Below, piece by piece: positions 10,006-63,296 of a DNA stretch of 64,000 nucleotides. Origin of the DNA: an uncultured Holophagales bacterium (GTDB lineage Bacteria > Acidobacteriota > Thermoanaerobaculia > Multivoradales > UBA5704); assembly GCA_963842525.1 (NCBI GenBank), contig CAWJGT010000034.1:352001-416000 (forward strand), given 5' to 3'. The notes under the pieces were generated by a model that saw only the letters and a list, made by a program, of their open reading frames with translations, had not been told where the DNA came from and ran no database searches. The translations under genes and the position numbers were made by a program. Positions within the stretch are counted from its first letter, which is position 1. Each line of letters starts with the position of its first letter.

Positions 10006-10308
10006 AGGTCGAGAATCGACGCGGGCAATGAGCGCCCCTTCAATAAGACGTCGACCTAGCCATTTCTATTCTCGACCTAGCCGAGGCGTATGCAGACCAG
10101 AGGCTGCAATAAGTCGAGAATCGGCCATTCTGACACTCAATTTGCATCCTCAAGGTCGAGAATCGGCTCCTTGAGGTCGAGAAAAAGACTCTAAAGGTCG
10201 AGCGATCTGATACCAGAGTCGCGCTAGAGCGATCTGGAAGTCGCTGTTTGTTGCGGGCAGTCACTGCCCATCGTTCAGACATCGCTCTTTGCTTCCTCTG
10301 CTCGACCT
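10006..10308. repeat. Degenerate 21-bp-phased array, core AGGTCGAG/CTCGACCT in both orientations
   Basis: TCGA cores start at 10009, 10051, 10072, 10114, 10156, 10177 and 10198, all multiples of 21 apart. One more at 10302 is 1 nt off phase. Confidence 0.75.
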
Positions 10309-10547
10309 GGAGACACACCGCAGACCTGCCTGATGAGGCAGGAGAGTGCTACGGACCGGCGGATGGCCCCGGGAAGGGAGCAGAGTTGGCTTCGTGGAGC
10401 ATGGACGGCGTGGAGACGCGGGCGTTGATCGTCGGCGAGGACCCCCGCGCCCGCTGCGGCCTCACGGTCCTGGGGCAGGCCGCGGCCGGCGAAGCTCCAA
10501 GCCGGCGGGACGCGGGACCTTGATAAACTTCGCCAGGCTCCCCCACC

Positions 10548-13014
10548 ATGGCAAACTTCGACGTCTTCCTCAGCCACAACAGCAAGGACAAGCCCATCGT
10601 CCGCGAGATCGAGGCCAGGCTGCGCGAGCTGGGCGTCAAGCCCTGGCTGGACGAGAAGGTTCTCCTGCCCGGCGACCGATGGCAGGACGAGATCGAGAAG
10701 ATCATCCGCACCTGCGAGACCGCCGCCGTCCTCGTCGGCCCCAGCGGCATCGGGCCGTGGCAGGAGCCCGAGATGCGCGGTTGTCTCCAGGAATTCGTTC
10801 GGCGGCGGTTGCGCGTCATCCCCGTCCTGCTCCCCGGCGCACCCAGGAAGCCACGCCTTCCTCTGTTCTTGAAGGATTTCAGTTGGCTGGACCTTCGGAA
10901 CGGCCTGGCCGATTCCCTGCTGGACAGCTTCGTAGAAGCGATCCGCAAGGGTCAACAAAAGAAGGCTCGCGCGGTATCTACTCCGAAAAAGGCGCCGGAG
11001 CCACAGACGGGTCCGACCTTCCACAACCTCCCCTTCCCGCCGCTGCGCGACCTCTTCAAAGGAAGGGACACCGACCTCCTTCGTCTGGAGTCCACCCTCG
11101 ACCAGCCCGGCCGGGCCGCCGCCATCACCCAGAGCGAGGCGATCTCCGGCCTCGGCGGCATCGGCAAGACCCGCCTCGCCGTGGAGCACGCATGGCGCTG
11201 CGGCCACCGCTATACGGCCGCCTTCTTCGTCCGCGCCGACACGCCCGAGGCGCTCCGCCGCGGCCTCGCGTCTCTGGCCGGCCCGGCCCTGCTGAGCCTG
11301 CCGGAGCGGACGGCCGCGGTGGAAGAGGAGGTGGTCGCGGCGGTCCTGCGCTGGCTGCGGGAGCATCCCGGCTGGCTGTTGATCCTCGACAACGTGGATA
11401 CGGAAGAGGCGGCCGCCGCCGTGGGCGCGCTCCTGTCCAGCCTCTCGGGAGGACGGGTGCTCATCACCTCCCGGCTGAGCGAATGGCCGCCTGACGTCCT
11501 CACGGAGCCCCTGGACACGATTTCACGGGCGGAAGCCGTCCATTTCCTCCTCCAGCGCACCAAAAAGGACGATCCAGAGCAGGCCGGCCGGCTGGCGGCG
11601 GTCCTCGGGGATCTCCCGCTAGCGCTCGAGCAGGCCGCCGCCTACATCCTCCACACGCGGATGCGCTTCACCGACTACCTCGACGCCTGGCAGCGCGAGC
11701 GCCCGCAGGTGCTCCGCTGGCACAACCCCCGCCTGATGAAGTATCCCGCCCCGGTCGCCGTCACCTGGCAGACTACCTTCGAGGAGCTCGGCCCGTCCTC
11801 AGCCGCGCTCCTCCGCCTGACCGCTTTCCTGGCCCCCGACCCCATTCCGGTCGCGATGTTCGAGGAAGGGTCCGGGACCGTCGAGCAGGCGGCGGCCCTG
11901 TTCTGCGAGGAAACCGGCCGGCAGCCGGCCCCCTGCCCAGTCCGCGAGGCGCTCGCCGAGTTGGCGGCCTATTCGATGGTCACACTCCAAGACAAGGGGA
12001 CGTTCGCGGTCCACCGGATGGTCCAGGAGGTGCTGCGGAGCCACATCCCTGCGGACCGGCTCAGGGCCTGGATCGAAGCTCGCTCTGCGGATCGTGAACG
12101 CGGCGGCGGTCAGTGGCTCCAGCGATGTTCGCACGTGGCCGCGCTGGAACCCCTTACTGCCTCATGTCGCGCAAATTGTGGCCCAAGCAGATGAAGCCGG
12201 CATCGCAGAGCCGACGAGCCGGCTCATGAACGACCTCGGAAATCACCTCGCAGCGAAAAGCCTACACGCTGAGGCCGAGCCCCTTTACCGCCGCACGTTG
12301 ACCATCGCTGAGCAGCACGGGCAACCCCACCTCGGTACCTACCTCAACAACCTGGCGGCGTTGCTCCAGGCGACGAACCGTTATTCGGAGGCCGAGCCGT
12401 TGATGCGCCGCGCCCTGGCCATCGCCAAGCAGGCCTTCGGGTCGGATCACCCCAAGGCCGTCAGACACCTCAACAATCTGGCTTTGTTGCTCCAGGCGAC
12501 GAACCGTTATTCGGAGGCCGAGCCGTTGATGCGCCGCGCCCTGACCATCGACGAGCAGGCCTTCGGGACGGAACACCCCAACGTCGCCATAGACCTCAAC
12601 AACCTGGCTTTGTTGCTCCAGGCGACGAACCGTCATTCGGAGGCCGAGCCGTTGATGCGTCGCGCCCTGGCCATCGATGAGCAGTCCTTGGGGAAGGAAC
12701 ACCCCAATGTCGCCATAGAACTCAACAACCTGGCTCAGTTACTCCAGGCGACGAACCGTCTGCCGGAGGCCGAGCCGTTGATGCGCCGCGCCCTCGCCAT
12801 CGACGAGAAGTCCTTCGGGGCGGAACACCCCAACGTCGCCATCCGCCTCAACAACCTGGCTCAGTTGCTCAAGGAGACGAACCGTCAATCGAAGGCCGAG
12901 CCGATGATGCGCCGCGCCCTGGCCATCCTCGAGAAAAGCCTGCCTCCGGGCCACCCGTGGAGAGAGGGTGCGCGGCGAAACCTCGCGGCGCTTCTGGAGG
13001 AAATTTCCTCTTGA
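10548..13014 (+). CDS. TIR - NB-ARC - TPR (NLR-like) protein, split by a frameshift near 12077
   Basis: TIR FDVFLSHNSKDK..WLDE..GPWQEPE. Walker A GLGGIGKT, Walker B LLILDN, ITSR, GDLPLALEQAAAY, VHRMVQ. ORF 12094-13014 continues with 42-aa TPR repeats; removing one A near 12077 restores IELALRIVN. Confidence 0.88.
12343..12930 (+). repeat. Five 126-nt tandem TPR-coding repeats of high nucleotide identity
   Basis: Units begin ctcaacaa at 12343, 12469, 12595, 12721 and 12847 and encode LNNLAxLLQATNRxSEAEPLMRRALxIDE. Confidence 0.9.
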
Positions 13015-13040
13015 CACCCCGCTCCTCCCTCTATTACGCT
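13011..13040 (+). promoter_or_regulatory. Putative sigma70 promoter TTGACA-N18-TACGCT
   Basis: Consensus -35 overlaps the upstream stop codon. About 170 nt of hairpin-rich leader follows, then GGAGG and the ATG at 13217. Confidence 0.4.
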
Positions 13041-13216
13041 TCAGAGCGTAACAAGCTGTAGCCAACCCGCGAGAGGAGGTGCCGAGGGAGAGCAAAAACA
13101 GATAAGGAAGCCGTTCGAACCGTTTCCGCCGGGCTCTCTGCGGCCCGAAACAAAAACGGCCCGGAAGTGAGTTGACGCTCACTCCCGAGCCTGACCCGAC
13201 ACGGAGGATACACTCC

Positions 13217-13744
13217 ATGCAAGGCTCCGATGAGTCTAACACCCCGTCTTTCCCCGAAGTTCCGTCTTCCCACAACGCCTTCACCCCTGAGTTTCTGCAG
13301 AGGATCGGCGAGCGCGACGAGCCGGTGACGGCCGGCGAGGCCGACATGGCCGGACCGTGGTTTGTCGAAGAGATCCCGGGCGCCGGATTCGGGCTCTACC
13401 GTCTCGGCGAGGGCCAGGCGCGGCGGTTCCAGCCGTTTGCCGTGTTCCGCAGCGCTGCGCTGGCGCGGCTCGCCGCCGCGATCCTTCCCGGCACCGGCCG
13501 GGACCCGGCGTTCCGGCTGCGCACCGAGTCGGACCGCGGCGGTTTTGCCGTGGAGAACGGCCGGGAGGTGGTCGGCCATCTGGCTCTCTTTGACGAGCGG
13601 GTGATCGAGGCGCTCTGCGCGGTGGACAGCGTGGTGCGCTCTCCCGAGGCTCTCGCAAATCTGCTTGACGCCGCGGGCGGGATCGCGCTGGAGCGGGCGG
13701 GGGCGGTTCTCGACAGCCGGTTCCCGGAACGGGCCCGGGCATAA
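13217..13744 (+). CDS. Hypothetical protein (~175 aa)
   Basis: RBS GGAGG before ATG 13217, protein-like composition, no family recognised. Confidence 0.7.
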   Translation: MQGSDESNTPSFPEVPSSHNAFTPEFLQRIGERDEPVTAGEADMAGPWFVEEIPGAGFGLYRLGEGQARRFQPFAVFRSAALARLAAAILPGTGRDPAFRLRTESDRGGFAVENGREVVGHLALFDERVIEALCAVDSVVRSPEALANLLDAAGGIALERAGAVLDSRFPERARA

Positions 13745-13748
13745 ATAC

Positions 13749-13832
13749 CCGGGCTAGGAACAGCGCCGGGTGAACCCGGCTTCAAGCCCCATTCATGGGG
13801 CGCTGTTCCTAGCCCGGCGATTCATCGCCGGG
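13749..13832. repeat. REP-like palindromic element
   Basis: Perfect 19-bp inverted repeat ccgggctaggaacagcgcc (13749-13767 / 13799-13817) plus hairpin cccggcgattcatcgccggg. Same style as 54713-54915. Confidence 0.8.
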
Positions 13833-13874
13833 TGAGGGGCCGGGGCTCGCGTATGTCTTCGAGGCCTCTCTGCC

Positions 13875-14237
13875 GATGCAACTCGAGGATCATTCGCAGC
13901 GCCGCACCCTGCCGGCGCAGCAATTCAAGGACGAGATGCTGTAAAACGAGGTCGAGCTGCTGCGACTTGGGGTCGTGCACGGGCTGCGCACGGTCGCGCC
14001 GCTGCGACTCGGGGTCGCGCCGCAGCCGCGCGAGGTTAATTTGCTGCGAATCGGCCTCGATTTGCTGCCACTCAGGGTCACTTCGCAGCGAAACGAGGCC
14101 GAGCGCGGGCGGCGCAAGGTCGCGCGGCAGCGGCTGGAAGCTCGGGCGCGAGCGGAAAAAGGTCCTGCGCGTCGTGATGGAGCTCCATTTGCTGCGAAAC
14201 AGGGGCGAGTCACAGCGGCGCGAGGTCCATTCGCAGC
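13875..14237. repeat. Degenerate 21-bp-phased array, core GCWGC
   Basis: GCAGC/GCTGC at 13896, 13917, 13959, 14001, 14022, 14043, 14064, 14085 and 14127, then 14191 and 14233 after a 1-nt phase shift. Confidence 0.75.
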
Positions 14238-14257
14238 AGCGCGAGCCCACGCCCAGG

Positions 14258-14882
14258 CTACCCCACCGACCCCACAAACTCCGCCACCGCGGCCACCGCC
14301 TCGCCCACGTTCTGCGCCTCCGTCCGGCCGGACGACGCCCGCGGCTTGAACGAGTGGTCGCCGTCCTCCAGCCAGACGATCCGGATCGCTGGCGAGAGCT
14401 TGTAGCCGGCGACCTCGTCCGGGGTGCCGAACGGATCGCGCGTGCCCTGGACGATCAGGGCCGGGGTGCGCAGGTGCTCCAGGTGCGCGGTCCGGGTCTT
14501 CTTCGAGCTGGCCGGGCGGATGGAAGGGATAGCCGAGGCAGACGAGCCCGCGGGGCTCCACCTCGTCGGCGATCAGGCTGGCGATGCGCCCGCCCATCGA
14601 CTTGCCGCCGATCACGAGGTTGCCGGCGCCGCCGAGCTCCTCGATGGCGGCCTTCCAGGCCTCGCGCAGCACGGGCTCGCGGTCGGGCGGCCTCCGCCGG
14701 GCCTCCTCGCGGCGGGCCCGCATGTAGGGGAACTCGAAGCGCGCCACCCGGATCCCCTCCTTGGCCAGGCCCGCGGCGATCGCGTTCAGGGACGGCGAGT
14801 CCATGGGCGCTCCCGCACCATGGGCGAGCACGACGGTCGGCCCCGTTGCGGGACCCGTGACGAGGAGCTCCGGTTTGCGCAT
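14258..14882 (-). CDS. Alpha/beta hydrolase (Abhydrolase_11 / KANL3-Tex30-like), frameshift near 14500
   Basis: LAHGAGAPMDS, RFEFPYM, GGKSMGGR, LGYPFHPPG. The alternate frame continues TPALIVQGTRDPFG..WLEDGDHSFKP..AVAEFVGSVG to a stop at 14258. Confidence 0.85.
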
Positions 14883-14960
14883 CCTGTGTTCCTCCCTCCT
14901 TCTATGGTAGCCTCAGGACAGCATCTTGATGTTCATGGCTCGATCTGAGGCGAGAATCGC

Positions 14961-16541
14961 TTGATCCCGACTCCTGCACAGTTGGAGGAGGTCTCCAGTC
15001 TCCGCGAGGGCAACCTGGAGCAGGTGCCCTTCTCGCGACTGCTTTGCGCCCTGGCGGTCCACAGGAAAACGCTGGTCGTCGAGATCCGGCGGCGCCAGCT
15101 CTGGAAGAAGATCTTCCTGGAGGGCGGCGTGCCGGTGGACTGCCGCTCGAACCTCGCCCACGAGACCCTCGGACGGTACATGGTCCTCGAAGGGAAGCTC
15201 AGCGAAGAGGACTTCACCACCAGCCTTGCCCGCTCGGCGGCCAGGGGAGTCCCCCTGGGCGAGGTCCTCCTCGAGCTCGGGCTGGTCAGCGCGGTCGACC
15301 TCTTCAAGATCCTGCAGCAGAACCTGGCCAAGAAGCTGCTCGACGTCTTCTCCTGGCGCGAGGGCGAGATTCACATCCTCGACGACGGGAAGCTCACCGC
15401 CGAGTCGTCCCTCAAGGTGAAAGTCCCCCAGCTCATCCTCATGGGAGTGACGAAGCTCTCCCCGCAAGACGAGGTCGACATGGCCGTCGGACCTCTGGTG
15501 GGCAAGAGGCTCGCGATCAACCCCTCCCCTGCGTTCCCGCTGGAGGACATCAAGCTGAGCCAGCGGCAGGCGCAGCTCATCGAGGCAATCCGCCCCGGCC
15601 GGCGGATGGGCGAGCTTGCCGAAGCCACCGGGTTGCCCATCGACGAGATCAGCCGCCTGCTCTATGCGCTGTCGATCCTCGGCGTCGTGGCTCCGGCTGA
15701 CGCGCTGCCCAAGGACGCGCCGGCAGCGCCTCAGCTTTCGAGCACGGGAAGCTTCCAGCGGCCATCCCTGTCATCCCTCAAGACAGCTCCCATCGCAATT
15801 CCTCCTCTGGCCACGGCCGCCCCGCAGGCACCTCCCCAGGACGTCGAGCGGCGCCACAACGAGATCATGCAGGCCTATCTGGTCTACCGCCGGCAGGACG
15901 CCTTCGACCTGCTCGGCGTGCCGGAGGAGGCGACGCTGCCGGTCATCGACGCGAAGTACCTCGAATTCGCCCGCAGATTCGCTCCCTGGTTGCTGGACCA
16001 CATCGATCTGCGCGGCTTGGAAGAGCGGGCGCGCGACCTCTTCCTGGCAGGAGCGCGGGCCTTCGGCGAGCTCTCCGACAGCGAGCAGCGGAACACCCTG
16101 CGCTTCCGTCGCAAGACCTTGCGCGAGGAAAGGGAAAAGAGACCCCCGGCGTTCGGCGGCATCAAGACGGACCTGCTCGACTCCGAGGCGCAGTTCAAAA
16201 GGGGTCTGGCCCTGCTGGAGCAGGGAAAGCCCAAGGAGGCGCTCCTGCACCTGGAGTTCGCCTCCGACTGCGACCCGCAGAACAGCCTCTACGCCGCCGA
16301 GACCGCCTATTGCCGCTTCCAGGTGTCCTCGGCCCACGCCAACCAGGCGCTCCGCGAGCTCGGCGAGACCCTGCGGCGCGACCCGACCTGCGGCCTGGCC
16401 GCCTACTACGCCGGCATCATCAGCCGCGAGACCGGCAACTACGGCGAGGCGGAAAACCACCTGCGCCGCGCTATCAAGCTCATGGCCCCCGACCGCCGCC
16501 CGATCGACGCCCTCAAGGCGCTGCCAGCCGGCCGGCGGTGA
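14961..16541 (+). CDS. DUF4388/PATAN-like domain + degenerate J-like domain + TPR protein
   Basis: N-terminus GNLEQVPFSRLL..KKIFLEGG..ETLGRYMV. J-like segment DAFDLLGVPEEA..YLEFARRFAPW (HPD lost). C-terminal TPRs. Confidence 0.7.
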   Translation: MIPTPAQLEEVSSLREGNLEQVPFSRLLCALAVHRKTLVVEIRRRQLWKKIFLEGGVPVDCRSNLAHETLGRYMVLEGKLSEEDFTTSLARSAARGVPLGEVLLELGLVSAVDLFKILQQNLAKKLLDVFSWREGEIHILDDGKLTAESSLKVKVPQLILMGVTKLSPQDEVDMAVGPLVGKRLAINPSPAFPLEDIKLSQRQAQLIEAIRPGRRMGELAEATGLPIDEISRLLYALSILGVVAPADALPKDAPAAPQLSSTGSFQRPSLSSLKTAPIAIPPLATAAPQAPPQDVERRHNEIMQAYLVYRRQDAFDLLGVPEEATLPVIDAKYLEFARRFAPWLLDHIDLRGLEERARDLFLAGARAFGELSDSEQRNTLRFRRKTLREEREKRPPAFGGIKTDLLDSEAQFKRGLALLEQGKPKEALLHLEFASDCDPQNSLYAAETAYCRFQVSSAHANQALRELGETLRRDPTCGLAAYYAGIISRETGNYGEAENHLRRAIKLMAPDRRPIDALKALPAGRR

Positions 16542-16544
16542 GGT

Positions 16545-17560
16545 CTACGGCAAGAACCCCTCGATCACCGTCCCCCGCCCGGACTCCAGCGCCTTTTCGC
16601 GCACGAGCTGCCCTACGGCCAGGTCGAGGACGCCGAGGCCGAAGGGGCTGAAGACCGTGATTGCGGCCTCGTCGCGCTTGGGTGGCGCGGTGCCCGCCAG
16701 CAGGTCGGCGAGGGTACAGCGGATGAAGTCCCGGTTTCCCGCCTGCTGCTTGGCGAGGTGGATCGAGGTCTGGGCGCGGCTGACATGGTCGGCGTCGTCC
16801 ACCACGTTGTCCGCGGCGAGGATCACCCCGGCAGTGAGATCGCGCAGCGAGGTGTGGAGGATGGTGGCGCCCGGCGGGCATGCGGACAGGTCCGCCACGT
16901 GCGGCCGAACCGCGGTGGTGGCAAAGGCGATCAGGGGGCAGCTCCGGAAGATCTCGTCTGCGCTGTCCGCGACCTCCGCCTCGACGTCGCGATAGCCGTG
17001 CAGCATCTCCTGGAGCGCCGCGGCCATCGCTTGCGCCCGCTCGCGGTGCAGGTCGAAGAGGACGAAGCGCTCGAGGTCCGGGACGGCCCGCACCAGGAAG
17101 CGGGCGGTCTCGAAATTGATCACCCCGGTGCCGATCAGCCCTGCCACGCGAGTCTGGCGTCCCTTGCGCAGCTCGCGGGCAGCCAGGGCGGCGCTCGCGG
17201 CCGTCCGCCGGGCACTGATCGACGAGCTCTCCAGGATTGCCTCCGGCAGGCCGGTGGTCGCGCTGTTGAGGATCAGCACCGCCGAGGCGCGCGCCAAGCC
17301 CCGCTTCAGGTTGCCGGGAAACGAGGCGATCCACTTCATGCCGGCGACGCCGAAGCCGTCACCCAGGTAGGCGGGCAAGGCAATGATACGGTTGAGGTCG
17401 TCGTTGGGAAAGCGGAGGAAGGTCGAGTGCGGGAGCGAGTCTCGCCGCGGCCATGCGCCAGGTAGGCGCGCGCCACCACGTCCATGACCTCCGTCTCCCG
17501 GCCGGCGAGGAGCGATGCCACCTCGCCGCCGCGCAGGATCAGGATGTCGTCATCTCTCAT
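16545..17560 (-). CDS. sbnB: 2,3-diaminopropionate biosynthesis protein SbnB (ornithine cyclodeaminase family), frameshift near 17435
   Basis: AYLAHGRG, PHSTFLRFP..RIIALPAYLG, GMKWIASFPGN, RTAASAAL, GTGVINFE, FSPFGLGVLDL. Coupled to sbnA. Confidence 0.9.
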
Positions 17561-18612: not shown

Positions 18613-18841
18613 CGTCTGTCACCTCTCTGAAGGGGCCTCGCAGCAAATCGCACCATCCCTAACTCTATGTACGCTCAAGCCAAGGAAGCGGGACAAAACG
18701 AGCCTGGGACGTTGCCGCTAGAGCAAACTCCGGCGCTGTGCTAGCATCGCCGCGCCATAAGGCCACGTACGCCCGGCGGAGCCCCCGCCGGCCTCAGTCG
18801 GGCGGTTCTCGCGCCGGCGAACGAATCACAAGGAGGGGACG

Positions 18842-19303: not shown

Positions 19304-19408
19304 CCGGTCGGCCGCGTGCCCGCGACTCGCCCTTGCACTCTGCCATCCGAATCGGCCTGCTCCCCGCAGGCCGATCGCTTTTCAACCCATGCTTCAGGAG
19401 CTCAACCG

Positions 19409-22708: not shown

Positions 22709-22783
22709 ATCCCCGGGGAGGCCGGCGTCCGGCCGGGCCTCCCACCTCCACCAACTCACGAGAGTCCTAGCGAAGGCCGAATC

Positions 22784-24583: not shown

Positions 24584-24584
24584 A

Positions 24585-38234: not shown

Positions 38235-38235
38235 A

Positions 38236-38290
38236 CCTCACCCCCTACCCCCCTCTCTCGTCGTGCTCCCGCCGACCGGGAGAGGGGGAC
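38236..38290. repeat. CCTCACCCC..CCTCTCCC..GGGAGAGGG palindromic REP-like element
   Basis: Same family as 42195-42250 and 58709-58862. Confidence 0.6.
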
Positions 38291-38430
38291 GTCGTTGAGG
38301 TAGCCTGCGCGAGGTCGTCGCTGCCCCGCCGTGTCATCCTGAGCGAAGCAACCTCTCTGCCCGCAAAGCCATATTCCACGTGCGCTTGCCGTCGTCGACG
38401 CTCGCATGCTGCCGTCGAAGCCGATATCCA

Positions 38431-38610
38431 AGGTTTTTAAGACCTACACCCGACTTTTGAGGCTTATCCCGAACTTTCCAGGCCAACGCCAGACTTTTAA
38501 GGCCAGCACTCGATTTTTCAGGCTGACGCCGGACTTTTAAGGCCTTCGCCAGACTTTTAAGGCTTACACCGAATTTTTGAGGCCTATCCCCGACTTTTCA
38601 GGCTCGCCCG
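38431..38610. repeat. Nine-unit 20-bp tandem array, approximate consensus nGACTTTTnAGGCYnnCnCC
   Basis: Exact 20-nt register from 38431: aggtttttaagacctacacc, cgacttttgaggcttatccc, gaactttccaggccaacgcc, agacttttaaggccagcact, cgatttttcaggctgacgcc, ggacttttaaggccttcgcc, agacttttaaggcttacacc, gaatttttgaggcctatccc, cgacttttcaggctcgcccg. Confidence 0.9.
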
Positions 38611-45875: not shown

Positions 45876-45884
45876 TCTCAGGAT

Positions 45885-50503: not shown

Positions 50504-50504
50504 G

Positions 50505-50801: not shown

Positions 50802-50861
50802 GACCCCTCCTCTCGGCTGCCGCTCACTCTATAACAGGGCAACTGTTAGGCTATCGCCGCC

Positions 50862-53479: not shown

Positions 53480-53485
53480 CGGCTG

Positions 53486-53956: not shown

Positions 53957-53957
53957 A

Positions 53958-54341: not shown

Positions 54342-54378
54342 GTGGTCAAACTCCTTGGAGCGCGGATCTATTCATCTC

Positions 54379-54642
54379 TCATGAGTCGGGCCACAGCTGC
54401 GCCTTGACCTCTTCCCACGTCTCCTCGTCTTCCGGGTGCCGGTCAATATCGACAAGACGTTCGTCCAGGATCTTCCTTTGCCATACAGGGTTTGTGACAA
54501 CGCCCTGGACGTCGGACGAGGCGGGGCCGTAGAAGTCGCGTTCGAACTCCTCCAGCGGCTCATCAAAATCGTCTGGAACTATAAGCTTTCCCTGATCGCT
54601 GCCGAACACGCGATCTTTCGGAGCACCGCTCATGGCTTGCAC
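54379..54642 (-). pseudogene. Chimeric relic of two antitoxin-like genes
   Basis: GSDQGKLIVPDDFDEPL (DUF2281/Phd-tail-like) joined to PVWQRKILDERL..TWEEVK (addiction-module-component-like). No toxin adjacent. Confidence 0.5.
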
Positions 54643-54712
54643 CTTAGCGGGAATGGGAAGCTAAATCAAGCTCTCGCCAACGTGCTTCGACTCCTCGTGT
54701 GTGTTTGAAAAT

Positions 54713-54915
54713 CAGCCCCGATAGGGGCGGCCGGAATTAGCCCGGGATTTCAATCCCGGGAAGCCAGCATCCCCTAGACCCGGAGCCCCGCCAGGGGCGA
54801 CAGGAAGCCGTCCGGCGAGGCCTCCTGCGCCCCTGACGGGGCTGGATCGTGGGTTTGGACTCGCGATCCCGGGCATGAATGCCCGGGCTAATTCAGGCCG
54901 CCCCTGGCGGGGCTG
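54713..54915. repeat. REP/BIME-like nested palindromic element
   Basis: Four AGCCCCGnnAGGGGCG-type hairpins (two per orientation) and tagcccgg(g)..cccggg hairpins, arranged as a large inverted repeat after cphA. Confidence 0.8.
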
Positions 54916-54932
54916 GTTTTCCAGACACCCAC

Positions 54933-57725
54933 TCAATCATCATGCTCGCCCGCGCTCTGTAGGACCGCGACCTCCGAGGCCGCGGCGGGCGCGGTGACGA
55001 TCGGCGGCAGCGACGTGGGGTCGGGAGCGTCGTCTCGCGTGAGGAAGATCGGGGCGACCGGGGCCATTCCGACGGGGGCCTCGGCGGGACGGCCGAAGCT
55101 CACGATCTGCTGCCAGCTCCGGTCCAGCTTGTCGCCGAAGATGACGAGGAGGTCGCCGGGCTGCGCCAGCTCCAGCGCTTGCTGGACGGCGTCGACCTCG
55201 GAGAGGACGTCGGAGGAGATGCGCTCCTCCGGGAAGCCGGCTTCGAGGAGGCCGCGGCGAAGGAGGGCCCCGATCTCTCCCGGCTTGCGCCCGCGGTGGT
55301 TGTCGTCCTCGCGCAGGAGGATGAGGTCGAACCCGGGCGCTGCCACGCGCGCCAGGTCGAGGATGTCCTCGTCCCGGCGGTCGCCTGGCGCGGAGAGGAC
55401 TCCCAGTCTGCGGCCGTGCACGGTCAGCTCGCGGATGGTCTTCGCCATGAAGGACATGCCGTGGGCGTTGTGGGCGTAGTCGAGCAGGACCCGGAAGGGA
55501 TGCTCGTTGTAGAAGTTCATCCGGCCCGGGGTCTGGAAGAAGTCGGTGGTGAAGGTGCGGAGCCCCTGGCGGATGTTGTCCAGGCTCATGCCCATGGCGA
55601 GCGAGATGGCGGTGGCGAACATCGCGTTCTGCACGTTGTGCAGGGCGTGCCCTTCTACAGTTGCCGGGATCTGCCGCGCCCAGAGGACCGGGATGTGCTC
55701 TTCGCCGTTGTAGAGGACGAGCATGCGGCCGTTCAGGCCTTCCTCCAGGACGACCGCCTTGCCGTGGTCGCGGATATGGCGGCGGACCCGCTCGTTGTTG
55801 CGGTCCATGGTCACGTAGATCGGCTTGCCCGGGCTGTGCTCGGCCATGGGCGCGACCCGCGGGTCGTCGGCGTTCAGGACGCACCATTCCTGCGCCACCT
55901 CGACGACCACGCGCTTGACCTCGGCCAGCTCGTCCAGATCCTTGATCCCGCCCATGCCGAGGTGGTCGGAGGCAACGTTCAACACCGCGCCGACCGTGCA
56001 CTTGCGCCAGCCCAGGCCGGCGCGCACGATGCCGCCGCGGGCGGTCTCCAGCACCGCGGCGTCGACGTTCGGGTCGCGCAGCACCAGATGGCTCGCCCAC
56101 GGGCCGGTCATGTCCCCCTTGGCGGTCAGCACGCCGTCGATGTAGACGCCGTCGCTGGTCGACATCCCGACGTGGCGGCCGGAGAGCTTGAGGATGTGGC
56201 CGACCATGCGCGTGGTGGTGGTCTTGCCGTTGGTGCCGGTGATGGCGGCGATGGGGATGCGGTAGGGGGTCCCCTTGGGGAACAGCATGTCGATCACCGG
56301 GCCGGCCGCGTCGCGCGGCTTGCCTTCGGTGGGCGCGACGTGCATGCGGAAGCCGGGAGCCGCATTGATTTCGACGATGGCGCCGCCCACGTCCTGCCAG
56401 CTCCGCGAGATGTCCAGCGAGAGGAAATCGACGCCGCCTACGTCGAGGCCCACGGCCTGCACGGCCCGCTCGGCCATGACCCGGTTGTCGTAGTGGATGA
56501 CGTCGGTCCGGTCGATCGCCGTGCCGCCCGTGGAAAGGTTGCCGGTCGAGCGGAGATAGAAGACCTGGCCCGCGGGGAGGACCGTGTCGAGCGTATGCCC
56601 GGCCTCCTCCACCAGGCGCTCGGCCTGGTGGTCGACCTCGAGGCGAGTGAGGACCTTCTCGTGCCCGACGCCGCGCCGGGGATCGCTGTTGACGATCTCG
56701 ACGAGCTCGCGGATCGTGTGGACGCCGTCGCCCACCACGTGGCCGGGGACCCGCTCGGCCACGGCCACGACCTTGCCGTTGACCACCAGGATGCGGTAGT
56801 CGTTCCCCTCCTGGAAGGTCTCGACGATCACGGTCGAGGAGCGGTCATAGGCCTCGTCGAAGGCGGTGCGCACCTGCTCGGGCGTCCGGAGGTTGATCGA
56901 CACGCCGCGGCCGTGGTTGCCGTCGAGCGGCTTGACCACCACCGGGTAGCCGATCTTCTCGGCGGCGGCGACCGCGTCGTCGGCCTCCCAGACCCGCTCC
57001 TGGCGCGGCACCGGAAGGCCCAGGTCGGCGAGGATCTGGTTGGTGAGCCGCTTGTCCGAGGCGATCTCGACGGCGATGTGGTGGGTGCCGCTGGTGACCG
57101 TGGCCTGGATGCGCCGCTGGTACTTGCCGTGTCCGAGCTGGACCAGGGAGCGGTCGTTCAAACGGATCCAGGGGATGTCGTGCTCCTCGGCGGCACGCAC
57201 GAGGGAGGCGGTGGACGGTCCAAAGGCACGGCGCTGGGCGAGGCGGACGAGCGAGGTCAGCTCGGCCGGGAAGTCGAAGGGCTCCGGATCGTGCGCCGCG
57301 CGCTCGGGCGGCAACAGATGCCGGATCAGCCGCAGGCCGAGCTCGGCGGCGCGCAGGCCGACCGACTCCTCCTCGAAGCTGTAGATCACGTGGTACTGCC
57401 CGCGAGGCAGGTCGTGGCTCCGCGTCTTGCCGTAAGTGACCGGCGTGCCGGCGAGGCATTGCAGCTCGATCGCCACGTGCTCCAGGACATGACCGAGCCA
57501 GGTGCCCTCGTCCTCGGTCATCCGCCGCACGAAGCCGCCCTCCTGGTCATACGAGCAGTGGTGCTCGGCGAGGGTCGGCGCCAGCTCCAGCAGACGGTCG
57601 GCGAAGCCGGGCAGGCGAAGGGTGGGATAGTCCTCCAGCTCGCCGAGGTCGACGCGCAGGCGGATGACCTTGCGCAGGGCGTAGAGATTGGGGCCGCGGT
57701 AGACGCGGGTATCAAGGATCTTCAC
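54933..57725 (-). CDS. cphA: Cyanophycin synthetase CphA1
   Basis: VYRGPN, EHHCS..GTWLGHVLEHVAIELQ, FGPSTASLV, KPLDGNHGRGV, NLSTGG, EINAAPGFRMH, ITGTNGKTTT, LETARGG, DYAHN, PGDRRD. Confidence 0.96.
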   Translation of the reverse strand: MKILDTRVYRGPNLYALRKVIRLRVDLGELEDYPTLRLPGFADRLLELAPTLAEHHCSYDQEGGFVRRMTEDEGTWLGHVLEHVAIELQCLAGTPVTYGKTRSHDLPRGQYHVIYSFEEESVGLRAAELGLRLIRHLLPPERAAHDPEPFDFPAELTSLVRLAQRRAFGPSTASLVRAAEEHDIPWIRLNDRSLVQLGHGKYQRRIQATVTSGTHHIAVEIASDKRLTNQILADLGLPVPRQERVWEADDAVAAAEKIGYPVVVKPLDGNHGRGVSINLRTPEQVRTAFDEAYDRSSTVIVETFQEGNDYRILVVNGKVVAVAERVPGHVVGDGVHTIRELVEIVNSDPRRGVGHEKVLTRLEVDHQAERLVEEAGHTLDTVLPAGQVFYLRSTGNLSTGGTAIDRTDVIHYDNRVMAERAVQAVGLDVGGVDFLSLDISRSWQDVGGAIVEINAAPGFRMHVAPTEGKPRDAAGPVIDMLFPKGTPYRIPIAAITGTNGKTTTTRMVGHILKLSGRHVGMSTSDGVYIDGVLTAKGDMTGPWASHLVLRDPNVDAAVLETARGGIVRAGLGWRKCTVGAVLNVASDHLGMGGIKDLDELAEVKRVVVEVAQEWCVLNADDPRVAPMAEHSPGKPIYVTMDRNNERVRRHIRDHGKAVVLEEGLNGRMLVLYNGEEHIPVLWARQIPATVEGHALHNVQNAMFATAISLAMGMSLDNIRQGLRTFTTDFFQTPGRMNFYNEHPFRVLLDYAHNAHGMSFMAKTIRELTVHGRRLGVLSAPGDRRDEDILDLARVAAPGFDLILLREDDNHRGRKPGEIGALLRRGLLEAGFPEERISSDVLSEVDAVQQALELAQPGDLLVIFGDKLDRSWQQIVSFGRPAEAPVGMAPVAPIFLTRDDAPDPTSLPPIVTAPAAASEVAVLQSAGEHDD

Positions 57726-58618
57726 GAGTAGCTCTCGACCGTGAGGTCATCGTAGGCCACGGCCCGCGTCTCCCTCGCAGAAGCGGTCTCGGCAGGCGGA
57801 ATGCCCATCCGGCGCTTCAGATCATAGCGGCATCCGGCGGTCAGGACGTCGAGCTTCAGGCCCAGCATCGCCAGGGGCTGGCCGCGATGGGTGGCGAAGG
57901 CGTCGGTGAAGCGCATCCCGCAGGCGTCGACCACGGTCACCGCCCCGGCGCCGAGGACTTGCAGCGTGCCGTCCGGATCGATGACCGCGGCGGTGTCCTC
58001 GTCGACCCCTACGCCGAGCGGCTCCGGGTTGTAGGAGAGCGCGGTGAGCAGCCGGCCGAGGCGGTCACGGCGCCGGAAGTGCTGGTCGATGACGAGGTCG
58101 GGAGCGAGGCCGAGCCCCTTCGCCATCTGGACGAGCCGGCGTCGGGGGGTGGCGCCGCTGTCGCCCATGGAGATCATGTGCTCGGAGAGGACGGCGGCGC
58201 CCGCGCTGGTGCCGGCCACGACCATGCCGGCCCGGTGGCGGCGCAGGATGGCCTCGCCGAGCCGCGTGCCGCCGAGGGCCGAGGAGATGCGGAGCTGGCT
58301 GCCGCCGGTCAGGAACAGGCCGGTCGCATACTCCAGAAGGTCGAACATCTCCTGGTCGGCGCCGAGGGCGTCCTCGCGGGTGGAGACGCGCAGCACCTCG
58401 GCCGAATCGGCGTCCAGGCGGTGGAACAGCTCGGCGTAGCGCTCGCCGGTGTCCGATAGCTCCGACGCGGTCGCCAGGATGACCACGCTGGCGTCGGGCC
58501 CGCCGCACGCCTCCACGAAGTGGCGCAGGATCAGGCGCTCGCGGACCTTGTCCTCGGCGCCTCCGATCGCCATCAGCAGCCCCGGCCGCGGGCCAACCGG
58601 CACGGCAATATCTTCCAT
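57722..58618 (-). CDS. cphB: Cyanophycinase (S51 serine peptidase)
   Basis: IGGAEDK, FLTGGSQLR, GTSAGA, IDQHFRRRDRLGRL, GVDEDT. Overlaps the cphA start by 4 nt. Confidence 0.95.
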   Translation of the reverse strand: MEDIAVPVGPRPGLLMAIGGAEDKVRERLILRHFVEACGGPDASVVILATASELSDTGERYAELFHRLDADSAEVLRVSTREDALGADQEMFDLLEYATGLFLTGGSQLRISSALGGTRLGEAILRRHRAGMVVAGTSAGAAVLSEHMISMGDSGATPRRRLVQMAKGLGLAPDLVIDQHFRRRDRLGRLLTALSYNPEPLGVGVDEDTAAVIDPDGTLQVLGAGAVTVVDACGMRFTDAFATHRGQPLAMLGLKLDVLTAGCRYDLKRRMGIPPAETASARETRAVAYDDLTVESYS

Positions 58619-58708
58619 GGATAGCAACCTCCCTCCGCCGGGCGCCGGTGCGCGCGACGCGGTGAAACAACCTGGTGCCGAAAAGGCGACGGAATGGTAA
58701 CACGGACA

Positions 58709-58862
58709 CCCTCACCCCCTAGCCCCCTCTCCCATCCGCACTCCCATCCTCCCGGGAGAGGGGGAACTCCCAACGCTCGCTTTTTCAAGGTCTTGGGTGG
58801 TGGCGCCCCCTCTCCCGGGCGGGTGTGAGTGCGGATGGGAGAGGGGGACGGGGGGTGAGGGT
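58709..58862. repeat. Inverted pair of CCCTCACCCC..CTCTCCC..GGGAGAGGG elements
   Basis: 58709-58765 and 58806-58862 are near reverse complements, each with an internal hairpin. Confidence 0.8.
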
Positions 58863-58920
58863 AGGCGGGCGGAGGCTCCAGCTACGATGACTTTGACGGG
58901 ACCGTGTGGGCTCCCGAAGC

Positions 58921-61837
58921 TTACCGGCTTTGCGGCAACCGCGAGCGGCGGTAGCGGCCGAGGAAGTGATTCAGGTAGAGGATGAGGAGAATCGCAATGA
59001 GGAGCCAGGTCGAAATCCGGCCTGAGAACGAAACGGGCGGCACCGCGATCCGGCCGCGGGCCAGGCGCGAGCCCACGAGGACGACCAGCTCGCCGCCGTC
59101 CGTGAAGTCGAGGTCGTCGACCGCTCCGGAGGCCGGCAACCCGCCGGTCACGGTGCGCACGTTCCGGGTGCCGGGCCGGTACCCGATCAGGTCCGGCGGC
59201 ACGAACGGCGGCCACGACCACCTGCGGCTTTCCACCCCCGCCCAGACCGTGCCGCGGCGGTCCACCGCAAGGATTGCCACCGGCCGCCTCACGGCACCGA
59301 CTTCCGCGAAACGGGAGCCCGCCCGGAGAGCCCGGCGGGCGACGAACAGGCCTTCCCGGGTGCCCGCCCAGAGGGTTGCGCCGTCGGGAGAGGCAGCGAG
59401 GGCGCGGATCTGCACAGTGCCGGGAAAATCGATCCGGTGGCCGGGCCCGCCGCGGGCCGGCAGGAACCGCACATGGGTCGCGGCACGCCGCATCGCCAGC
59501 CGCGGATCGAGGAGGAAGGCTCGGTCGAGAGCGTTGTAGGCGAGGAAGGCTGAGCCGTCCGGGAGAGCCGCCAGCGCGTCCACCGGACCGGACGGCAGGC
59601 CATCGTCCACCCTCGCCGTGCGCTCGACCACCGGCCTCTCACCCTCGATGCGGACGCGCGCCGCGCCCCCGGCGGTGGCCGCCCACACCGTCCGGCCGCC
59701 GCTGCCGGGAACGGCGGCCAAGGCGTGCACGTCCAGCGAGGGCAGGCCGCGGACGCTGTCGCGGCAGGCTTCTCCTTCCTGAGGCCCGCAGAGCCGGAGA
59801 CCGCCGAACCGCAGAGCCACCCAGACCCGTTCCGCGCCGGCAGGCGCCACATCCCAGACCGGCAGGCCGAACGGGACCGCCGCCACGGCCGGAGGACCGG
59901 TGGCCCGCAGCTCGGTGAAGCTCACGCTGTCGCCACGGCTGCGCACCACGAAGCGGCCTGCGAGGGCGACGCGCGAAGGCGGCGGCGGGACGCGCGGAAA
60001 GGAATGGTCTGGAAACGGGAGGATGCTGAGCGCGCCGGCCTCATCCTGGTCCTCGGCGCCGGCCAGGACCAGGCGAAGGAGACCTCCGTGCGTCGCCAGC
60101 CAGGCGGCTCTTCCCGCCGGATCCGGCAGGATGCGATCGATGTCCCGGAACGGCCGGTCGATGCCGTCATAGGCAGCGATGGTCCTGCCCGCCGCGTCGA
60201 AGCGGTGGAGGAAGGGCCGGTAGTTGCGCACCTCCGTGCCCGGCTGCTGCGGCCCCACGACCGCGCCGGCCATCCATCCGCCCCCCGATGCCTCGACCGC
60301 AAGGGCTCTCACCTCACCGGGCCAGCGTGCAAACCTGCCGGAGCGGACGTCGAAGCGCAGCAGCCCCCTCCGCTGTGTCTCGATCCACAGAGCCCGCCCG
60401 CCGGGCTGAAGGTGGACACGCCGGATCATGTCGCCGCTCGCCGGACTGAGGAGCGGCGTCGAGAACAGCGTGGAGGCTCCGGTCGCGCGGTCGGCGCGGA
60501 GGAGATCTTCCTGCGTGGCGATCCACACGGTCTTCGCCGCCGGATCTTCGAGCAGCGCGAGAGTCGAGCCGTCCGGCCACCTCCCGGGCGGGCGGCCAGG
60601 GGACGAACCGGTCCGCTGCGGGATCGAAGCGGGCGACCCCGCGCGAACCTCCGGCCAGCAGAGCGCCGCCGGCAGGATCGCGACCGAAGTAGGAGACCGA
60701 CCGGCTCGGCAGGCCGTCCGCTTCGCCATAGTTGCGGAACTTCGAGGTCTGGGGATCGAAGCGACTCACCCCCACGCCGTTCACGACGAGCCAGAGCGGA
60801 CCGCCGGCACGTTCCTGGTGGAGGACGGTCACCCAGCCGGGGAGCCCGTCTGCGGCGGTGACCTGCGACCAGCTCCCGGACCGGGGATCGAAACGGATCA
60901 GGCTCCGGTTCGTGGCCAGCCACACCGGACCGCCACCGCGTTCCTGGACGAACGCGGCGACACGGTCGCCTTCCTGCAAGAGGCCGGGAGCCGGAACGGT
61001 GAGCCGGCCCGTTGCCGGATCGAGCCGGACGAGAGAGCCGGAGCCCGCGAGCCACAACGCGCCGCCGGACTCCTGCCAGAGCCCTTCGAGATCGTTCGCC
61101 GGAAACCCGGGACGCCGCAGCAGCGGGGTGACCGCTCCGGTGGCCGCTTCGAGCCGCACGATCCCTGCGCTGGTGGCGAGCCAGACCGGACCACCGGCTG
61201 CGCGATAGAGGGCCTGCACCGTGCCGACCCGCTGTCGGGGCGGGGGGAAGAAACGGGTCTCGCCGGTCGCTGGATCGAGCCGGGCGAGCTGGTTTTCAGC
61301 CCAGGCCCAGAGAGCGCCGCCGGCTCCCTCTTCACGGTAGAGAGCCGAGATCGACATCCCGTCGAGCTTGCCGGGCGCTGCCTTCACCTCCCCAGGCACG
61401 CTGCCACCAAGCTCGGGCTTCCAGGGCCGCTCCGCCGTGGCAACGAGATCCGGAGTCTTACCGCGTCCCTCCGGGGTGAAGTCGATGCGGCCCGTCCGGC
61501 GATCGAAACGGCTCAGCGCCCCATCTGTGCCGAGCCAGAGATCGCCCTCGACATCCAATTGAAAGCTGTGGACGGCGTCGCTGGCGAGACCGTCGCGGGT
61601 GGTGAGGCGCGTCAGGATGCCGGTCCGCGGATCGAAGCGGATCGCGCCGCCGCCGGTCGCAAGCCAGAAAGCTCCCGAGGGCTCCTGATAGACCGTCTCG
61701 ACCGGTTGGACCAACGCCGGTCGGTCCGCGACCGGCACGTCCCAGGGCTCGAGCGGCGCCACCCACTCCAATGCCCGGCATCCTGCCAGGCCGAGAGGGC
61801 CTGCGACGACGATGGCCAGCAAGGCTCTCGTTCGCAT
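58921..61837 (-). CDS. Beta-propeller (Reg_prop-like) lipoprotein with C-terminal TM, frameshift near 60730
   Basis: Lipobox LAGC, repeated G-x-(L/V)W-(L/I)-(A/G)T and DGLPS motifs in ORFs 60314-61837 and 58921-60729, terminal TM WLLIAILLILYL. Confidence 0.75.
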
Positions 61838-61935
61838 GATGGAGGCTCGATCCCAGACAGGTGAAACATGATGATACCACGCGGGCTCCCGGCCGCTTGA
61901 CGCAAGGTCCGCGCGCCCGCAACATTGCGCCTCAC

Positions 61936-62640
61936 ATGACTGCGCAGAGAAAGCTCCTCGGCATCCTCGGCGGCATGGGGCCCCTGGCCTCCGCCGAGCT
62001 CATGACCACGATCTACCGGGTCAGCCGTTTCGACCGCGAGCAGGAGGCGCCGGCCTGCCTCCTCTACTCGGACCCCAGCATCCCCGACCGCACCACCGCC
62101 ATCCTCGCCGGCGACGTTGCGCCAGTGGCCGCCCGGCTCGCCGAGGGGATCGAGGCCCTCCTGCGCCTGGGGGCGCGCCGGGTGGTCATCGCCTGCGTGA
62201 CTGCGCACGGCTGCCTCCCCCACCTGCCGGAGGAGCTGCGGGACAACGTCATCTCCCTCATCGACCTCGTGATCGACGAGGTCGAGGCCAACCCGGGCCG
62301 TTTCCTGCTCCTCGCCACCCGCGGCACCCGGTCCGTGCGCATCTTCCAGGACCACCCCCGCTGGCCGGCGGTCGGGGACCGGGTCGTCCTGCCCGGCGAC
62401 GAGGACCAGCAGCGGATGCACGACTGGCTCTACCGCATCAAGCAGAGCGAGCCTCTGGAGCCCTGCGTCGACTGGCTCCACGCCCTCGCCCGCTCCGAAC
62501 AGGCAGACGGCCTGATCTTCGGCTGTACCGAGCTCCACCTCCTGCACCGGGTCTGGAAGGCCAGCGCGGACGTTCCAGACCTGCGGATCGTCGATCCGCT
62601 GCTCACAGTGGCGCGGGAGCTGCCTCGGCTGATGGCTTGA
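61936..62640 (+). CDS. Aspartate/glutamate racemase family protein
   Basis: LGILGGMGPLAS, IPDRT, IACVTAH, LATRGT, FGCTELH; both catalytic Cys present. Confidence 0.9.
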   Translation: MTAQRKLLGILGGMGPLASAELMTTIYRVSRFDREQEAPACLLYSDPSIPDRTTAILAGDVAPVAARLAEGIEALLRLGARRVVIACVTAHGCLPHLPEELRDNVISLIDLVIDEVEANPGRFLLLATRGTRSVRIFQDHPRWPAVGDRVVLPGDEDQQRMHDWLYRIKQSEPLEPCVDWLHALARSEQADGLIFGCTELHLLHRVWKASADVPDLRIVDPLLTVARELPRLMA

Positions 62641-62666
62641 GCGCCGCAGAATCGCGGCAGGCACTC

Positions 62667-63296
62667 CGTCGCAACAGGCTCATCATCCGATACAGAGTGT
62701 CGACACATTGTCGCAGAGCGAGGCGCGCTGCCGTCGCATTGCGACACTTTGTCGCAGAGAGGCTTCCTCTATTCCGGCGCAAGCTCACACTGGCGCAGCG
62801 TCCGCAAACATTGCGACAGTGTGAGCTTGCAATGTCGCAGCGGCAGCGTACGCTGCGACTGCGGAACGCTCACTGTCGCAGCGCCTCCCGCGCTCCACGG
62901 GACTCTCCCTGCGTTGTCGCAATGAAACAGAGCAATGTCGCAGATGCTTCGCGCATCATCGCGAAATGTCGCTGCATCGTCGCGATGCTTCAACACCTTG
63001 TCGCGATGTCACCTGAGATGTCGCAGTACATGGTGCTTCTGTTGCATCGCTCCCGAGCACTGCCGCAACTCCCGCTGCGCAGGACGACCGCGAGCGGGCA
63101 ATCCGTGAGGAGTTGGTCCCGCTGCGACAAATGGCGGGGGCAGCGGACCGGCGTTACGGCGCCCGTTTCTACTGCAAGCTGACGCTGTCGCAGGGTTAAT
63201 GAGACGCTGCGACAGTGCGAGCTTGCAAACGGCAGGCTCCGCCTTGGCTGCGACACTCAACATCGCTTCAGGGGGGAGCTTCGCGACGTTGCGACA
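62667..63296. repeat. Degenerate 20-21-bp-phased array, core TGTCGCA/TGCGACA in both orientations
   Basis: Cores at 62667, 62709, 62750, 62791, 62812, 62833, 62854, 62874, 62915, 62936, 62978, 62999, 63019, 63040, 63061, 63123, 63186, 63208, 63249 and 63290. Confidence 0.85.

Follow-up and report, generated by a model that had tools for sequence, protein, structure and literature searches.

A window of 64,000 bp from the genome of an uncultured Holophagales bacterium (assembly GCA_963842525.1, contig CAWJGT010000034.1, positions 352,001 to 416,000 of the forward strand) contains four intergenic arrays in which a short core recurs every 20 to 21 bp. The source assembly, designated G000, comprises 9.95 Mb in 34 contigs with a G+C content of 68%; its contigs are abbreviated as C9, C12 etc., so that the window corresponds to C34:352001-416000, and the arrays are referred to as A1 to A4. 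They had been noticed in an initial annotation made from the sequence of the window, and all four were found at the coordinates given there. A1 (10006..10308) is located between the divergently oriented genes of an EamA transporter and a TIR-STAND protein, A2 (13887..14243) comprises ~17 units, A3 (38431..38610) lies between convergent genes and A4 (62667..63296) extends over ~30 lattice positions. No strand is assigned to any of them.

Four arrays on a helical lattice

The periodicity of each array was determined by autocorrelation at lags 20 and 21 and compared with 1000 dinucleotide shuffles. All four arrays exceeded the shuffles (z 3.5-11.0), and the strongest lags were 20, 21 or multiples thereof in every one of them. 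Whether the core centres fall on a one-turn lattice was determined by a Rayleigh test against 5000 random placements, for which the cores were picked after inspection of the sequence; in all four arrays the cores lie at 10.0-10.55 bp per turn, i.e., on one face of the duplex.

The most regular array is A3 with nine head-to-tail units of 20 bp, each consisting of GACTTTTnAGGC and 8-9 variable nucleotides in a single orientation throughout. Tandem Repeats Finder (TRF) reported a period of 20 with 8.5 copies, and the top autocorrelation lags were 60, 40 and 20 (z 11.0, 0/1000 shuffles). Eight cores, all on the plus strand, are spaced by exactly 20 bp (R 1.00 at 10.00 bp, 0/5000 placements). Two sister arrays of A3 were found at C13:8090-8270 and C34:522740-522920.

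In A4 the core TGTCGCA/TGCGACA occurs in both orientations, with 14 exact and 22 near-exact instances. The exact cores, with the orientation +-+-+++++-+---, are separated by 31, 10, 62, 21, 41, 41, 21, 83, 104, 63, 22, 41 and 41 bp; the steps thus mix 20, 21 and 22 bp and some cores stand at half steps, and yet the cores keep to a lattice of 10.40 bp (R 0.92, 0/5000). The top autocorrelation lag was 21 (z 5.7, 0/1000 shuffles). A paralogous array, 68% identical across 650 bp, is located at C12:86340-86991.

A2 had been described as an array of GCWGC cores at 13875-14237; it is better described as a strict 21-bp lattice, roughly from 13887 to 14243, in which each unit starts with GGTC and carries a GCTGCGA/TCGCAGC core in either orientation. 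The top lags were 42 and 21 (z 10.0, 0/1000 shuffles). With the 13 GCTGCGA cores that have at most one mismatch, the lattice gave R 0.72 at 10.55 bp (44/5000 placements), and with the seven exact cores only, 418/5000 placements did as well. Homologous arrays are present at C30:35673-35989 (75% identity) and C20:64788-65094 (73%). A1 is the weakest of the four. It contains only six exact GGTCGAG cores, in the orientation +-+++-, or eight AGGTCGAG cores if one mismatch is tolerated, and it stayed below the threshold of the genome-wide scan described below. Its top lag was 21 (z 3.5, reached by 1/1000 shuffles), the six cores gave R 0.98 at 10.50 bp (11/5000) and no homologous array was found elsewhere in G000.

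As the initial annotation had stated, the orientation of the core flips with the phase held in three arrays, which are A1, A2 and A4 but not A3, and a strict period of 20 in one array (A3) stands beside a mixture of 20 and 21 in another (A4). CRISPR arrays have repeats of 24-48 nt that alternate with unique spacers of similar length and are usually accompanied by cas genes. Here the whole unit measures 20-21 bp with a core of 6-12 nt, and the arrays are not CRISPR arrays, again as noted before.

A genome-wide class with a common pitch

G000 was scanned in 240-bp sliding windows, in which lag 20 or 21 was compared with nearby lags of equal codon phase; because the compared lags have equal codon phase, ordinary coding periodicity cancels. 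The scan returned 342 regions, 242 of which, including A2, A3 and A4, had at least three windows at z ≥3.5 and were taken as periodic regions. By a codon asymmetry below 0.25, 194 of these 242 are noncoding-like, and the remaining 48 show codon-like asymmetry and are probably coding repeats. The best Fourier period of the 242 regions had a median of 20.65 bp, and 192 of them were within 19.5-21.5 bp. A TRF search of the whole genome gave 316 tandem-repeat loci of at least 100 bp; 223 of them fall on a ladder of ~20.7 bp with periods of 19-21 (103 loci), 40-42 (38), 59-64 (56), 81-84 (14) and 102-105 (12). All-against-all BLAST sorted the 242 regions into 74 families, of which 44 are singletons and 30 have multiple copies (up to 25 arrays per family); their cores are unrelated, for example ATCGATCCAG, CGCGGTCC, AAGCTCCGC, CTTCCGGA and GGTCGGAC. 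The array DNA found by the scan amounts to ~76-84 kb. The arrays of the window are members of a genome-wide class of ~200 non-coding arrays with a core spacing of two helical turns, and the class proposed in the initial annotation from four examples, in which phased elements differ in core but agree in their two-turn pitch, extends to the entire genome. A non-integer pitch near two turns of B-DNA that is common to dozens of unrelated cores indicates that the constraint acts on the DNA duplex and not at the level of codons or RNA. A limited literature search returned no account of these arrays.

Since 21 bp correspond to seven codons, the arrays could also be translated heptad-repeat open reading frames (ORFs). 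The strict 21-bp lattice of A2, two frames of which are open over most of the array, would fit this explanation, as would the 48 regions with codon-like asymmetry and the 175 of the 242 regions that keep one frame at least 95% open; 50 of the 194 noncoding-like arrays also lie inside a stop-to-stop ORF by a crude gene caller. However, the open-frame test is uninformative because of the G+C content of 68%, at which open frames are expected, and in the open frame of A2 the G+C content of the second codon position (0.65) is as high as that of the first (0.64), unlike in genuine genes of G000. The periods of A3 and A4, exactly 20 in the former and a mixture of 20, 21 and 22 in the latter, do not permit a reading frame, and A1 has stop codons in all six frames. 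Cores flip strand within arrays, A2 differs from its paralogues by a 1-bp indel and A4 from its paralogue by 1-2-bp indels, and the median period of the class is 20.65, not 21.0. A six-frame search of G000 returned no ORF with at least three DPNG motifs, and repeat peptides of the DPNG type were thus not linked to the arrays. Individual 21-bp arrays might still be coding. As an explanation of the arrays as a whole, translation is highly improbable, in line with the argument of the initial annotation that protein coding does not account for them.

A second explanation places the function in RNA or single-stranded DNA: the arrays could be transcribed into repeat RNAs that act as sponges or as precursors cut to 20-21 nt, or their inverted cores could form a hairpin or cruciform. 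A4 folds much better than shuffled sequences on both strands (z -8.3 and -5.8), and an inverted repeat of 14 bp in A4, GCAAGCTCACACTG ... CAGTGTGAGCTTGC (window 62779-62831), is kept in the paralogue (C12:86430-86490) via two compensatory double changes, as seen by eye in the alignment. The folding of A4 would be compatible with a hairpin or cruciform, but equal folding of both strands is expected of any DNA palindrome. A3 gave no folding signal (z +1.1 and -0.1), a 20.65-bp pitch mixed from steps of 20 and 21 has no RNA rationale, the arrays occur 5' of genes, 3' of genes and in convergent gaps without distinction, and no Rfam family matched them at gathering thresholds. We therefore consider a role at the level of RNA or single strands improbable.

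Core conservation was determined by comparing core with spacer identity between paralogous arrays, with 2000 circular shifts as control. Between A4 and its paralogue on C12 the cores were 0.92 identical and the spacers 0.64 (0/2000 shifts), and the sole long indel between the two measures exactly 21 bp, i.e., one unit, so that the phase is kept. In a comparison of three arrays linked to the gene described in the next section, the values were 0.90 and 0.55 (0/2000). By these comparisons, cores of the TGCGnCA type are under purifying selection. The alternative suggestion of the initial annotation, an unknown repeat-generating process, is not needed, because ordinary unequal recombination under selection for phase fits the indels of whole units as well as the higher-order units (40, 60 and 84 bp).

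The sequence AAGCTT is ~14-fold enriched in the arrays (1.53 vs 0.106 per kb; 129 of the 1051 genomic sites lie within 84 kb of arrays). It often centres a palindrome between two inverted cores, e.g., at C9:107881-108480, C34:675240-675700 and C30:112700-112800.

Gene X and its upstream arrays

The core TGTCGCA of A4 occurs in at least eight arrays in G000, with spacings that are multiples of ~20.7 bp. Four of these arrays start directly beside copies of a paralogous gene, here named gene X, of which G000 has ~17 copies. Most copies are preceded by an array whose period is 20 or 21 bp and whose core is particular to the copy (TGCGACA, TGCCGCA, AGTCGCA, GCGGTGGATAAGCTTA, CTGCGGCAGAG). A periodic window (z ≥3.5, within 800 bp) was found upstream of gene X at 12/19 loci in G000 and downstream at 0/19, and 0.73% of the windows genome-wide pass this threshold. 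With an 11-row alignment as query, 58 further loci were retrieved from other Thermoanaerobaculia genomes; the upstream region was periodic in 52 of 57 assessable loci, the downstream region in 1 of 55. The next ORFs of the 58 loci did not include a conserved neighbour, the largest cluster covering only four loci, and since no other gene recurs beside gene X, the unit consists of the gene and its array. A4 itself is an 'orphan' copy of an array type that is found elsewhere upstream of gene X. In locus L117, the array that precedes the gene X homologue has the core type of A2 (CTGCGA) as well.

Of 18 genomes sampled from the taxonomic family of G000, 14 carry members of the gene X family together with arrays, whereas none of the 12 genomes that represent other families in that order has a member. 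Gene X has at least 393 homologues, and among the 120 listed those with a name are hypothetical proteins, except for two automatic 'PopZ' labels. As a side observation, copies of gene X in G000 often precede small genes that resemble toxin-antitoxin genes (AbrB/MazE-, PIN-, HigA- and ribbon-helix-helix-like, judged by eye from the N-termini) or Uma2-type genes, e.g., at C11:236200-237000, C13:56500-56730 and C9:476300-476640.

Gene X encodes a protein of 165-175 amino acids. An AlphaFold (AF2) model from 24 aligned sequences, with a mean pLDDT (predicted local distance difference test) of 81, predicts a helix from residue 7 to 69, a disordered segment from 73 to 87 (pLDDT <50) and one winged helix from 94 to 166. 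With residues 87-172, VIA-align gave Z-scores of 9.2 for Zalpha, 9.1 for the Fur DNA-binding domain and 8.1 for linker histone H1.8. Foldseek also returned winged-helix matches, but with E-values of only ~0.01, among them the DNA-binding domain of Rok (5zux, 5zuz) at 0.046. Three of seven paralogues scanned matched the Pfam family DUF3253 (PF11625; E 4e-7 to 2e-4), two of them above the cutoff of 22.1 bits (26.5 and 30.5) and the third at 22.0; the other four, including the copy adjoining a TGCGACA array, did not, and the literature search mentioned above had returned nothing on DUF3253 or gene X. None of the seven matched Rok_N or WHD_Rok in Pfam at E-values up to 1. Gene X had no match to Rep families in Pfam or NCBIfam and none in PHROGs; a sequence search of the PDB returned nothing below E 0.2, and PADLOC gave a weak match to the winged helix of AbiEi only (E 0.003). 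The nearest named neighbour in a language-model comparison was a Rok-like cluster (score 0.85), which is a lead only. In its predicted layout of N-terminal helix, flexible linker and C-terminal DNA-binding domain, gene X would be similar to Rok, H-NS, MvaT and Lsr2. Unlike these silencers, which target AT-rich tracts, it has no Rok match in Pfam, its putative targets are discrete G+C-rich cores in phased arrays, and a genome contains many paralogues, each with its own core.

Among 68 gene X modules, the 6-mer similarity of the arrays rises from 0.07 for proteins with less than 35% identity to 0.46 for those above 80% (Spearman 0.40). The predicted recognition helix also pairs with certain cores: ASD[VI]LRRML is found with (A/G)CCGCAA, RLASTALRRL with GTCGCA and TA[SA]VAL with GACGCA, GATGCA or GGCGCA. 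From the linkage, the geometry, the conservation of the cores and the predicted fold, gene X probably encodes the binder of its upstream array subclass.

A winged-helix gene beside phased repeats is reminiscent of plasmid replicons. In iteron plasmids (pPS10, F, P1 oriR/incA, RK2, R6K), tandem units of ~19-22 bp present one site per two helical turns on the same face, next to the gene for a winged-helix binder, and extra arrays elsewhere titrate the same Rep protein. In repeat centromeres such as pSK41 parC/ParR (20-bp repeats), R1 parC/ParR and tubC/TubR (winged helix), the binder coats the array cooperatively. The modules could therefore be relics or parts of integrated plasmid-like replicons, in which gene X would be a Rep-like protein at iteron origins or copy-control sites, or a centromere-binding protein. 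Like iteron replicons, gene X arrays are helically phased repeats of ~20-21 bp that adjoin the gene of a candidate binder, with several units in direct repeat, and winged-helix initiators (ORC/Cdc6) are among the fold matches (VIA-align, Z 6.8-7.8). Like parC/ParR and tubC/TubR, the array stands directly upstream of a gene for a small predicted DNA-binding protein, and the strict 20-bp pitch of A3 would make its sites wind slowly about the duplex, similar to the superhelix of ParR and parC. Unlike classic iterons, many units of gene X arrays are inverted, and 20-35 units in both orientations are far above known origins. Rep initiators have two winged helices, whereas the gene X model has one and a long N-terminal helix, and ParR is a ribbon-helix-helix protein. 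The modules are chromosomal, with ~17 of them and ~200 arrays per genome, and tblastn searches of 72,556 plasmid and 50,697 phage records with gene X returned nothing. No ParM, ParA or TubZ gene or other partition NTPase adjoins the gene X arrays in the 58 loci, and, unlike at partition loci, many unlinked arrays with many different cores are present. An origin from replicons thus has little probability.

Genomic setting and proposed function

Dispersed repeats lie next to three of the arrays and are context, located outside of them. Beside A1 there is a REP/MITE-like element of ~190 bp with an internal inverted repeat (9794..9986), with many copies of 82-91% identity on other contigs; beside A2, a palindromic repeat of 88 bp (13745..13832) that has at least nine copies at 97-100% identity; and beside A3, a repeat (38235..38349) with copies of 76-86% identity on several contigs. 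Repeats of the REP/BIME, BOX and NIME type consist of single or few palindromic units and do not form long helically phased arrays. Like them, the arrays are lineage-restricted, non-coding, multi-copy and intergenic and are gained or lost between close relatives. They differ in their long helical phasing, and separate REP-like elements adjoin arrays here.

To the right of A1, the TIR / NB-ARC-like STAND gene (10548..12194, plus strand) matches TIR_2 (5e-22), DUF7779, AAA_16 and NB-ARC in Pfam as well as TIR models of PADLOC. It is followed at 12341-12927 by a tandem repeat of 126 bp in 4.7 copies that is coding and corresponds to the 42-aa TPR_12/TPR_10 units of a STAND-associated TPR protein. 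A gene for a protein of 190 aa (13172..13744, plus strand) points with its 3' end toward A2 and had no match in Pfam, PHROGs or PADLOC. The protein belongs to an unnamed multicopy family with 14 matches in G000 and one to eight per congener, the members of which adjoin nine periodic arrays; several matches contain one in-frame TGA. On the other side of A2, an Abhydrolase_11 gene on the minus strand (14258-14882) looks frameshifted: the Pfam match covers the ORF only up to residue 127, which corresponds to position 116 of the 193 in the profile, and a second frame with a third-position G+C content of 0.94 runs on from 14572 to a stop at 14258. A4 is flanked on the left by an Asp/Glu racemase gene (61861..62640, plus strand; Pfam Asp_Glu_race, 1e-24), which was not found in two sampled genomes of the same genus and whose other family members are at most 55% identical, and on the right by a Ser/Thr protein kinase gene (63404..64000, plus strand; Pfam Pkinase, 5e-30) that extends past the edge of the window. 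Elsewhere in the window, two matches to the small RNA Acido-Lenti-1 (54714-54760, minus strand, and 54868-54914, plus strand; 42.2 and 40.6 bits, gathering threshold 37) face each other at a distance of ~110 bp.

Arrays of G000 also adjoin TIR-, NACHT- and AbiE-type genes. As for possible partners, an array lies no more than 700 bp from the 3' end of 14/115 genes of a TPR family, a higher share than among all long ORFs of G000 (105/3622), for example C9:601584-602966 with an array at 603031-603870; a tblastn search with a single TPR C-terminus had given only five usable members. The enrichment is real, but no binder was deduced from it because few arrays are covered and several array families are involved. 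Kinases, non-ribosomal peptide synthetases, MacB/FtsX, histidine kinases, NACHT and TIR-STAND proteins were dismissed as partners; they are merely large gene families in G000. An element of the IS91 insertion sequence family with a Y2 transposase (2.9 kb) is present in three copies of 98% identity (C9:1899673-1902559, C3:356326-359213 and C25:537196-539904), besides a remnant that is 81% identical (C3:1117181-1117506). Two of the three copies and the remnant occupy the same relative place just past three homologous TGCGACA arrays, which are themselves ~75% identical. The third copy has no TGTCGCA core or periodic array beside it, and IS91 was therefore rejected as carrier of the arrays.

Taken together, we lean towards the view that the arrays act in cis as docking strips to which oligomerising DNA-binding proteins attach in a sequence-specific manner, and that the lineage-specific gene X protein binds those of the TGCGnCA type, i.e., A4 and possibly A2. 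A core is displayed every two helical turns and sometimes every one, so that all sites would face the same side of the duplex. The winged helix of the gene X protein would read one core, and its flexible linker of ~25 residues may permit reading in either orientation. Through their N-terminal helices of 63 residues, adjacent molecules could pair or link up, forming a cooperative filament on one side of the duplex. Where the array immediately precedes the gene of its own binder, the two would make up a self-contained module that is probably autoregulated, and orphan arrays such as A4 might be bound in trans by the products of two intact paralogues with TGCGACA arrays (C9:1898259-1898780 and C30:111732-112244). 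Silencing, insulation or bridging are conceivable as downstream effects. A1 and A3 follow the same geometric rule with unrelated cores.

Several observations weigh against this view, in addition to the open frames and the folding of A4 described above. Cores of the gene X type account for only ~17 of the 194 noncoding-like arrays of G000 by a rough count, and only eight arrays adjoin gene X; ~90% of the class, including A1 and A3, is without a candidate binder. No gene X paralogue in G000 has the recognition helix that is paired elsewhere with the core of A2, and in the trio formed by A2 and its homologues the cores were 0.79 identical and the spacers 0.61, which is not significant (134/2000 shifts). 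The co-variation of protein and core could come from co-inheritance of gene and array alone, and for pairs with less than 50% identity the helix region was no better predictor of array similarity than the whole protein (rho 0.15 vs 0.22). At the site orthologous to A1, none of five congeners has an array. At that of A3, four congeners have none and one has a different array (locus L123, G004:C296), which lies ~150-900 bp downstream of the orthologue of the DAO gene, carries CTGCGTC/TGACGCA cores at a period of ~41 bp (z 10.5) and is preceded by a G/C-rich REP-like hairpin of the kind found beside A3. The absence of arrays from orthologous sites argues against a fixed local regulatory job, and the arrays do not prefer any type of intergenic gap (divergent 30, tandem 74, convergent 38; background 363, 1071 and 429 gaps).

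The same turnover and indifference to gap type would be expected if the arrays were selfish or neutral satellite-like or purely mechanical DNA, with a pitch that arises from curvature or the response to supercoiling and with gene X as a passenger or as regulator of its own subset only. Their multi-copy families with up to 25 arrays, their higher-order units of 40, 60 and 84 bp, which are typical of satellites, and their variable-region setting among toxin-antitoxin, TIR/STAND, NACHT, AbiE and IS genes speak for it, as do the T or A tract per unit in A3 and several other families and the IS91 rolling-circle elements next to TGCGACA arrays. There is also a eukaryotic precedent: Helitron minisatellites of C. 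elegans are reported to have acquired a helical periodicity in evolution and to serve as mechanical insulators (bioRxiv 10.64898/2026.08.08.743475). Like these PATC/Helitron minisatellites, the arrays are dispersed, have a helical period and are linked in places to rolling-circle transposons; unlike the eukaryotic arrays, in which A/T tracts with a periodicity of 10 bp are reported to act via mechanics and nucleosomes, they present specific G+C-rich cores once per 20-21 bp, with a dedicated protein for one subclass. Curvature alone does not demand that G+C-rich cores of 7 nt be kept at 0.90-0.92 identity amid spacers at 0.55-0.64. Flips of orientation with the phase held fit site recognition, the 52/57 linkage points to a dedicated protein for at least one subclass, and no transposase or terminal repeats accompany the arrays at the 58 gene X loci. 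We regard this explanation as unlikely, albeit as the most serious of the alternatives.

The docking of oligomerising proteins therefore remains the explanation that we favour, and it bears on the suggestion of the initial annotation that proteins load on one helix face, e.g., nucleoid or partition proteins. For the TGCGnCA type (A4, perhaps A2) this part is supported by the linkage to gene X and by the conservation of the cores; for A1 and A3 no binder was found, and the lack of a partition NTPase at the gene X loci speaks against the partition variant. The present analysis adds the extent of the class across the genome, its pitch of 20.65 bp and, for one subclass, a candidate partner protein. 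For arrays of this kind, gene X provides the first candidate for a protein partner, and the pairs of gene X and array would be a natural library of orthogonal pairs of short core and small binder that could serve chromosome labelling or synthetic regulation.

A further-reaching and rather doubtful possibility is that Thermoanaerobaculia have a programmable, sequence-addressed layer of chromatin, in which the ~200 arrays per genome, belonging to dozens of families, would be the addresses, each with its own filament-forming reader, the gene X family being only the first of these to be recognised. If so, arrays that have their core in common would be linked by bridging or regulated jointly in trans, and the variable, defence-rich parts of the chromosome would be insulated or silenced in a modular manner that has no described bacterial counterpart. 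If the arrays are indeed docking strips, these widespread soil bacteria would devote close to 1% of a 10-Mb genome to phased sites for DNA-binding proteins.

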